19,879 nucleotides of DNA from a virus (lineage: Duplodnaviria > Heunggongvirae > Uroviricota > Caudoviricetes), in IMG/VR virus record IMGVR_UViG_2681813223_000009. One strand, given 5' to 3'. This document shows, in pieces, positions 12,001 through 15,000 of this stretch. A program made the position numbers. Position 1 is the first letter of the stretch, and every line of letters begins with the position of its first letter.

Positions 12001-15000
12001 GCTTGCTGAAACACTGGGTAAAACGCTGGAAGACAGGGATTATGCCACGCAGCCGCTGAGCAAACTGTTCCCGAAACCGGACTACGCAAAACTGGCGAAC
12101 GAAGGTGCTGATGCTGATACCCTGGCAATGATAGCGCTGTATCGTAGCGATATTCCGGCGAAGACGAAACACAATACGGCAGGCTGGGGGGAGAGCATAA
12201 AAAAAGTACGACACAGTGTATCGGAAATGCTGAACGGAACGGTCAGCGCGAAACGCCTCGCAGAATGGATGGAAGGCAGAATGCCCTCCCGTTACGCGGA
12301 TACCTGGCAACTGTTACGCACTCTGCCACCCTCACAGATGGACAGGGCTTCTGCTTATCGGGTGGTATCGGGTGTGTATCAGGCGGCAGGAGGGAAGCGT
12401 TACGATCCGCCACAGAAACTTTATTCACTGCGCAATAAGGACAATAAGGGGAGTAACCTCTTTTTCTCGGAAAGCAGGGATGAATTACTGGCAAAGGCGA
12501 AAGTCTGGTTTGCAGAGCAGGAGGAAAAATCACAGGCGAAAGGTGATGAAAAAACAGCACCGTCACCGGATGACAAAATCCGCTTTGACGTTTACCGGAA
12601 TACCCGCAGTGGCGATATTTTTATCGCTTACGGTAAAAACAAAATGCGGGTGAGAGGTGGCTTTAAGTCAGCCAGTGATGCGCGTAAGTACATTGATTCA
12701 CATCGTGATGAGCTTGTTCGTCATGTGAAGGAGATGCGGGAGATTTCGCGTGAGGAGCAGCGCAACGCCACCAACCGCGACCGTACCGGACCAGAACGCC
12801 GCAAGGGGAATGTTTCACCGGAGCAGTTCAGTGATGCGTTTGGTTTCCGTGGTGTGCAGTTTGGTAACTACGTGGAAGGTCCGCGTCGTCAGGCTGATTT
12901 GAACCGGGCTTATGACTCGCTGCATGACCTTGCGGAAGTACTGAATGTACCGACAAAAGCGCTTTCCCTGAACGGTCGTCTTGGCCTGGCATTTGGTGCC
13001 CGTGGTAAGGGTAAGGCGGCGGCACACTATGAGTCAGGTGAGGTGGCAATCAACCTGACAAAAGGTAACGGACCGGGTGCGCTGGCGCACGAATGGTTCC
13101 ATTCTCTGGATAATTATTTTGGTCGTTATGACGTTTCCAATGACGGGAAAATTACGTCAGGTGGCGACTTTATGACGGAAGCACAGCGTGTCAGGCGCAT
13201 ATTTAAAGACGGCAGGTATGTTGATGCTGAATATCCGGTACGTCAGGAGGTTTACGACGCTTTTAAAGGTGTGATTCAGGCCATTAAAAACAGTGACATG
13301 CCGCGTCGTTCAGCGCTTCTCGATAAGGTGCGCTCAAAACCGTACTGGTCAACGGATGTTGAAATGGCGGCACGTGCCTTTGAGCGTTATGTTCAGGATA
13401 AGGCGCGTATGGCTGGCGTGGAGAATGATTATCTGGTCAATATCCGTAAGGCACCTGAGCACAACACAGATAACACCTACGCTTATCCGACGAATGCGGA
13501 ACTGGATGGCGGTATTCGTGAGGCATTCGATCACCTGTTCCGCACCCTGAAAACCCGTGAGACGGACAAGGGCGTTGCGTTTTATTCCCGTAAGGGCGTT
13601 ACCCGCACACCTGAAGGTAATCTCATTTCGGATGTTAACCGTAGTGCGGAAGCCAAAGGCAGCCCGGTCCCGCAGGTTGAAGCGGTTGCCCGTGGCGTGA
13701 TGAGCGGCATTAAGGACAGTGACCTGAAGGTCCGTGTGGTGAAGTCACAGAAAGAGGCTGAAGCGCTGGCGGGTGAATTGTTCGATGGTTACGGCAGGGT
13801 GCACGCATTCTATCGTCCGGATAAACGAGAAATTGTCCTGGTGGCGGATAACATCCCTGACGGGCGGACCGTTCGCGAGAAGCTGCGTCACGAGATCATT
13901 CACCATGCCATGGAGCATGTTGTCACACCAGCGGAATATCAGACGATTATCAAAACCGTGCTGAAAACCCGCGACAGTGATAACGTCACCATCCGTGAAG
14001 CCTGGCGTAAGGTTGATGCTTCCTATGGTAAGGAATCACCGGAAGTACAGGCGGGTGAATTTCTGGCACATATGGCGGAGAAACAGCCGAATAAATTCGT
14101 GGCGGCATGGGAGCGTGTTGTTGCCCTGGTCAAAGGGGTACTGCGTCGTACGGGGTTACTGAAGCCGACGGAACTGAACGATATCAGACTTGTTCGCGAG
14201 ACCATCCGTACGTTAGGCCAGCGTGTGCGGGAAGGTTACACGCCGCGTGAGGATGGCGCGGGCGCATCGTTTCAGTACTCCCGTAGTGGTAAACGTGATC
14301 CGTTCAAAGTGCCGGAAGGTGAGGGCGAGCGTTATCGTGATGACCTTGCCAGAATGATGAAATCTCTGCGCACCACAGATTTAACGGTAAACATCGGGCG
14401 TACGCCGCCGGTATTGCGTCACCTTGGTGCACCGGATTTGCCGCTGGTTATTTCCCGCGATACTGTGCGGAAGGCCACCAATGGTGTGAAACATGTGGTG
14501 CCGATGGATGTTATCGAGAGACTACCGGAACTGATGCACGATCCGGATGCAATTTACCGCTCAGCGACAGAAAGAAATGCGGTTGTGATGCTGCTTGATG
14601 CCGTGGATAAAAATGGTGATCCGGTGGTGTCAGCGGTACACATGAAGGCTGTCCGGTCGCGTCTGGAAATCAACAAGGTAGCTTCTGTTTACGGTACAGA
14701 AAATGGAAAAAAACTGAAGAGTATGGAAATGACCGGGTTAACGTTGTACCGGAGAGAAAAATTAAGCCGCGATAACCTTCTGCACAGAGGGCTCCAATTG
14801 CCCAAAGGGGAACATTCTTATCGCGGCTCTGCGGATAAAATACTCTATCCTGAAGATATTCGCAAGGGGCCGTATTACTCCCGTACCAGCAGTCTGACAC
14901 CGGAAGAGACAATTGCATCGCGTTTTGTGCGCCAGATGCAGGATAAATTCCAGGTGCTGAAAGCTGTTCAGGAGAATATCCGTAAAACTGGCGGCAAAGT

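Follow-up and report, generated by a model that had tools for sequence, protein, structure and literature searches.

Two conserved zincin-like domains in the giant polyvalent protein L0134 of Shiga toxin phages and a junction motif that may mark sites of its proposed self-processing

We analyzed a 19,879-nucleotide stretch of DNA from a virus of the Caudoviricetes (IMG/VR record IMGVR_UViG_2681813223_000009; this whole stretch is called the window here) for the significance of two HExxH motifs in its giant open reading frame (ORF). The ORF occupies positions 9200-17620 of the plus strand, encodes 2,806 amino acids, and is 100% identical to L0134 (ST933Wp72, NP_049532.1) of the Stx2-converting (Stx, Shiga toxin) phage 933W (NC_000924.1). 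The 3-kb stretch around both motifs is also 100% identical to 933W and to many short-tailed Stx phages; it matched 186 phage records, 185 of them with coverage of at least 80% of the query. Short-tailed Stx phages disseminate Shiga toxin genes among E. coli. In 933W, the L0134 gene lies in the late/tail region, downstream of the tail-fibre gene, lom, and other late genes, and RefSeq labels its product "LPD5 domain-containing protein" and nothing more.

L0134 is the orthologue of ORF80 of phage Sp5 and of gp47 of phage phi24B. ORF80 (2,793 amino acids) is one of nine essential morphogenesis genes, and after its deletion the heads looked normal and binding of a tail-fibre antibody was lost (Mondal 2016). 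phi24B gp47 was detected by mass spectrometry in virions, is invisible in the cryo-electron microscopy map, and was proposed to be an encapsidated ejection protein (2026 phi24B preprint). The sole hit reported for ORF80 was COG1483 AAA+ (Mondal 2016), an ATPase label that we did not reproduce with Pfam or NCBIfam. As a separate observation, the start of L0134 is perhaps annotated 13 codons early, as a PHROG profile and the 2,793-residue Sp5 ORF80 both start at Met14 (nucleotide 9239). The only two cysteines of L0134 (residues 5 and 13) fall in this possibly misannotated leader (9200-9238).

Four Pfam domains scored above cut-off in L0134, and all are on the plus strand: LPD5 (PF18799; residues 1064-1213, positions 12389-12838; E=6.5e-45), LPD1 (PF18796; residues 1374-1453, positions 13319-13558), MuF_C (PF18819; residues 1763-1852, positions 14486-14755; E=1.3e-17), and LPD38, a phage-specific polyvalent-protein domain (residues 2489-2694, positions 16664-17281). 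With the two metallopeptidase (MPTase) domains described below, the order is LPD5, MPTase, (LPD1), MPTase, MuF-C, LPD38. L0134 is a polyvalent protein as defined by Iyer, Burroughs, Anand, de Souza, and Aravind (2017, PMC5512222; hereafter Iyer 2017), because it is large and multidomain, combines LPD with effector domains, and is encoded in a virion-gene setting.

The original prediction placed two HExxH motifs about 270 residues apart in this protein, and their positions were borne out. HEWFH (13088-13102, residues 1297-1301) and HEIIH (13889-13903, residues 1564-1568) lie in the frame of L0134, in the exact contexts described, within a single 2,806-residue ORF and 267 residues apart. HAMEH (13904-13918, residues 1569-1573) follows HEIIH directly in the same frame. 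These two are the only HExxH motifs in L0134. Because HExxH is short, it was conceivable that both had arisen by chance in a very long protein. However, the composition of L0134 (38 His, 202 Glu) predicts only 0.037 such motifs, and in 5,000 shuffles the probability of at least one was 0.038 and that of at least two was 0.0002. The opposite strand over the motif region has no ORF of 80 or more amino acids. The sole ORF of that size there, of 85 amino acids with a GTG start, lies in another frame inside the giant gene (13293-13550, plus strand); it is unsupported and probably spurious.

HEWFH lies in a domain spanning approximately residues 1215 to 1455 (12842-13564), to which LPD5 is fused directly upstream. 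We found at least 194 homologues of segment 1215-1467. Many are standalone proteins of ~330 amino acids with LPD5 and LPD1, and homologues of 300 to 440 amino acids with PF18799 plus PF18796 are numerous. Among the matches listed, 113 of 120 homologues have HExxH, nearly always as HEWxHxxD. Conservation was scored in full-coverage alignments of 33 and 48 sequences with 30-65% identity. In the smaller alignment, H1297, E1298, W1299, H1301, and D1304 of the catalytic motif H1297-E1298-W-F-H1301-S-L-D1304 (13088-13111) were each present in 33/33 sequences. H1276, in an AHYE motif at the predicted end of β-strand 2 (13025-13027), was conserved in 32/33 and in at least 90% of the 48. Downstream, the helix motif E1388-x-x-A-R-x-F-E1395 (13361-13384) supplies a candidate third zinc ligand, E1388, which was invariant in both alignments (33/33; model position E174), and E1395 was found in 30/33. 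A G-rich strand region was also conserved in both alignments.

An AlphaFold2 (AF2) model of this domain, built from the 48-sequence alignment, had a predicted local distance difference test (pLDDT) score of 89.8 and a predicted template modeling score of 0.90. Its order is canonical: a helix, three strands, the HExxH helix, an insert, and the Glu helix (model residues 172-190). All its structural matches were zincin proteases. Residues 1195-1450 matched NCBIfam CLCA_X (NF041907) over profile positions 3-245 of 250 (E=9.2e-44), at 149.8 bits against a curated cut-off of 260 bits. Lenart et al. (2013, PMC3650047) defined CLCA_X as zincins of phages and plasmids akin to the CLCA proteases, which cleave themselves, and the supplement to that paper includes residues 1195-1467 of the 2,806-residue Stx-phage protein in its CLCA_X alignment and table. 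Membership of domain 1 in CLCA_X was thus already published for L0134 itself. Because the invariant E1388, with E1395, lies inside Pfam LPD1, this Pfam entry apparently covers the C-terminal half of the CLCA_X zincin and is not a separate domain. The likely roles are H1297, H1301, and E1388 as zinc ligands and E1298 as general base, with the clade-specific H1276 and D1304 in the pocket.

HEIIH lies in a second domain (approximately residues 1490-1660; 13667-14179), which has no Pfam, NCBIfam, or PDB sequence match. A word-indexed search with it retrieved close enterobacterial fragments only, whereas an exhaustive HMMER search retrieved 362 representative clusters, almost all of proteins of 1,000 to 6,000 amino acids. 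We aligned 141 homologous domains. E1565 and H1568 of the catalytic motif H1564-E1565-I-I-H1568 were present in all 141 and H1564 was present in 138. In the downstream helix motif E1620-x-x-A-x-x-A-E1627 (14057-14080), E1620 was again invariant (141/141; model position E141), making it the candidate third zinc ligand here, and E1627 was conserved in 129/141. The AF2 model had a pLDDT of 81 overall and 87-98 over model residues 10-150, with the HE on a helix at 76-95 and E1620/E1627 on one at 135-148. H1564, H1568, and E1620 are likely zinc ligands, and E1565 is the likely base.

The family consensus is R-H-E-x-L-x-H-[YH]-G-L (core HExLxH[YH]GL), and 138/141 sequences have HExxxH in place of the canonical spacing. 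HE(I/V/L)IHH was confined to the query (HEIIHH, 13889-13906) and four close relatives. Because the query aligns with the family without gaps from "HH" onward, a one-residue deletion in the Stx-phage subclade probably converted HExxxH to canonical HExxH, with H1568 as the equivalent of the conserved His. HAMEH had been proposed as a further zincin-type metal-binding signature, and this did not survive the alignment. Position 1569 was Y in 62 sequences, H in 49, and K in 14; position 1573 was N in 54, G in 18, and A in 14; and position 1572 was occupied in only 66 of the 141. We therefore do not accept HAMEH as an additional metal site or an extension of one.

Polyvalent MPTases include an HEXXXH clade (Iyer 2017), and the domain 2 family fits the published description of this clade, which would place domain 2 in a second clade, restricted to polyvalent proteins. 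Among viral models, the Foldseek matches of domain 2 were further phage proteins labeled "large polyvalent" and small viral zincins of the SprT or IrrE type. Domain 2 is found as well in ~106 Vibrio phage records and on conjugative plasmids of Pseudomonas, Xanthomonas, and Burkholderia. It is a new annotation of a known kind of module. We also observed plasmid zincins of the domain 2 type within proteins annotated as zeta-toxin family members (e.g., NZ_CP026110.1, 70728-71162), a further polyvalent context.

The original prediction of two metallopeptidase-like cores in one protein is supported by these conservation and modeling results. Both motifs lie within predicted helices, and both models have zincin topology (an N-terminal helix, a mixed β-sheet, an active-site helix, and a Glu helix) similar to that of solved zincins. 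H, E, and H are near-invariant in homologues of both domains. The original prediction named a third zinc ligand, a downstream Glu or His, as something to check, and an invariant Glu is present on the downstream helix of each domain; its role as a ligand is a candidate one. The two HExxH motifs are the conserved, predicted active-site cores of two distinct zincin-like domains. Their invariance in distant homologues, and their location in high-confidence models of the zincin fold, on the helix where they are expected, refute chance occurrence, which we now regard as having a negligible probability.

The families suggested originally were not recovered. Profiles for M78/ImmA-IrrE, SprT/Wss1, and Peptidase_M76 gave no match at or above gathering score for either domain, and neither domain matched the ArdC type or Pfam MPTase-PolyVal (PF18818), a model that stems from Iyer 2017. 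A Pfam search of the two segments at a permissive threshold (E≤10) gave no peptidase family; it returned LPD1 and sub-threshold EF-hand_6, DEK_C, and Peptidase_M76. Therefore, neither domain can be assigned to M78, SprT, or MPTase-PolyVal. PDB sequence searches with single sequences and with the domain 2 profile found nothing meaningful. When the domain 1 and domain 2 profiles were compared with hhalign, the probability was 4.7%, and the aligned stretch was the equivalent strand 2/strand 3/HExxH region. At this probability, recent duplication is not demonstrable. In 28 of 149 representatives, a CLCA_X-type domain is followed directly by a domain 2-type domain, and the order is never reversed. 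Therefore, the tandem is a recurrent dyad.

Some zincin folds are catalytically inert; one example is the degenerate zincin that forms the N-terminal protective antigen-binding domain of anthrax lethal factor. The L0134 domains might likewise have a structural, packaging, or chaperone role. However, degenerate zincins lose HExxH and the Glu, whereas in L0134 these residues (H, E, and H, with the downstream Glu) are near-invariant across 33 to 141 homologues at 25-50% identity, the hallmark of an active site under maintenance. No residue expected of a functional gluzincin-like site is missing from either domain, which speaks against pseudo-enzymes, and we consider an inert fold improbable.

If the domains are active, they might, in line with the effector reading of the original prediction, be proteases delivered with the DNA that cleave host proteins (for example, those of defence or the envelope) instead of L0134 itself. 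Points in favor are the intact catalytic residues, delivery of the protein in the virion, and the presence of toxin proteases (anthrax lethal factor, PPEP, and the light chains of botulinum toxin) among the closest solved folds. Iyer 2017 also allows that some polyvalent MPTases act on host proteins, as an alternative to their main proposed activity of processing polyvalent proteins into modules. We regard a host effector role as unlikely, although less so than an inert fold.

Another conceivable role of the peptidase activity is to break down peptidoglycan and so let the ejection conduit through the cell wall. In its favor, cell-wall hydrolases are present in the ejection proteins of other podoviruses. 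Such a role was also proposed for phi24B gp47 in the 2026 preprint, in which MuF-C is called a metallopeptidase and peptidoglycan degradation is suggested. However, MuF-C has been classed as a PBECR RNase-like domain, not a metallopeptidase (Iyer 2017). The actual zincin domains of L0134 are upstream of MuF-C and show no relationship to known cell-wall peptidases. We consider the peptidoglycan role very unlikely.

The role that we favor, at close to even chances, is self-processing of the giant protein. The two zincins would cut L0134 itself at interdomain junctions, either during packaging or after ejection into the host. These cuts would free or switch on the modules LPD5-CLCA_X, the second protease, the RNase-like MuF-C domain, and the C-terminal part with LPD38. 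The best candidates for the junction sites are [FY]SR motifs that bracket the domains. L0134 has one [FY]SR in each linker after a module: FYSR between the zincin domains (13580-13591, residues 1461-1464), FQYSR after domain 2 (14270-14284, residues 1691-1695), and YYSR after MuF_C (14873-14884, residues 1892-1895).

This placement recurs among ~140 giant homologues, in which [FY]SR is concentrated in two sharp peaks, between -100 and -80 and between +120 and +140 relative to the domain 2 HE. At these peaks its rate is ~10 per 1,000 residues, compared with a background of ~0.4 (roughly 25-fold), and the query motifs are at -102 and +129. Overall, [FY]SR occurred 142 times, twice the 71 ± 8.6 expected from composition. 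CLCA_X domains also show a peak, at their C-terminal edge (+140 to +180 from the domain 1 HEW), and 25 MuF_C-like matches had 12 occurrences of [FY]S[RKQ] at +12 to +45 past the domain end. Strict [FY]SR was found on the N side of domain 2 in 32/123 homologues, on the C side in 29/123, and on both sides in 18/123. Relaxed forms (FSQ, FSK, FRR, and FAR) were common at the C side of the remainder. Standalone versions of domain 2 start just past the N-side motif position, and their C side keeps "QQTFPxxDxxQF" and not "SR". Such a distribution is in keeping with a junction element confined to fused contexts. The main text of Iyer 2017 does not mention the motif.

The most economical reading of [FY]SR is that it marks self-processing sites, which would make residues 1461-1464, 1691-1695, and 1892-1895 the candidates in L0134. 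Several points weigh against this explanation as a whole. Strict [FY]SR is found in only ~25% of homologues per side, and the motif might have another role, in docking, in packaging, or as a structural element of linkers. N4 vRNAP, ArdC, and TraC1 bear MPTases yet are transferred full-length (Iyer 2017), and the accessible part of the phi24B gp47 proteomics is silent on whether the protein is intact or fragmented. The CLCA_X score of domain 1 is below its curated cut-off, as noted above. Finally, the analysis shows where both domains lie, how conserved they are, which fold and family they have, and that [FY]SR is positionally enriched; that the domains bind zinc, are catalytic, and cleave L0134, and at which sites, is inferred. 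A bolder proposal is that L0134 is a true polyprotein whose two zincins cut at [FY]SR junctions, motifs that would bracket protease and effector modules across hundreds of phage and plasmid polyvalent proteins, and that the Stx-phage lineage has retuned its second protease from HExxxH back to HExxH. We hold this only tentatively and think it more doubtful than self-processing as such.

These results matter because the L0134-type protein is essential, yet it is labeled in the Stx-phage literature as of unknown function or doubtfully. Precise placement of the two protease cores pinpoints predicted catalytic residues (E1298 and E1565) for point mutation. Of the new leads, the most useful is the pattern of the junction motif. 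If [FY]SR motifs are cleavage sites, then delivery as one chain followed by cutting into effectors becomes testable by mass spectrometry, and the whole class of polyvalent proteins would have a general processing code that can be read from sequence.

Other features of the window were noted in passing. An ORF of 83 amino acids at 7642-7893, annotated as "bacteriocin," has a sub-threshold match to a glycine zipper (YMGG-like; 25.7 bits versus a cut-off of 28.9), and residues ~419-446 of the giant protein (~10454-10537) have a much weaker, nonsignificant one. Such glycine zipper-like segments could be membrane-active elements of the ejection apparatus. At 18635-18909, RefSeq annotates a hok/sok-type locus (hokW/mokW on the minus strand and sokW on the plus strand). 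At gathering threshold, however, Rfam matched no family anywhere in the window.

The two domains can be compared with several known systems. Like CLCA_X proteins, domain 1 has HExxH followed by a conserved Asp (D1304), and like most members of that family (PMC3650047) it is encoded on a mobile element within a very long protein. It also resembles the phage-type MPTase clade of Iyer 2017, whose members have a strand 2 ending in His and, three residues past HExxH, an Asp. Domain 2 of the Stx phages differs from the HEXXXH clade of Iyer 2017 in having HExxH spacing instead. Identity to anthrax lethal factor and PPEP (M34-like), TTHA0227, YbeY, Wss1/Spartan, and the ArdC C-domain is 5-18% with no profile-level match, so the likeness to lethal factor/PPEP and to minimal zincins is at the superfamily level only. 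Two zincin domains in one polyvalent protein are a known arrangement and unsurprising: 36% of polyvalent proteins have one to five MPTases, and about 8% carry multiple copies (Iyer 2017). Phage P1 DdrB is a precedent for the self-processing proposed for L0134. Processing of L0134, ORF80, or gp47 is inferred only, and the domain order and partner domains differ from those of DdrB. However, DdrB is also a virion protein, and it has a C-terminal MPTase and is proteolytically processed before packaging (Iyer 2017).

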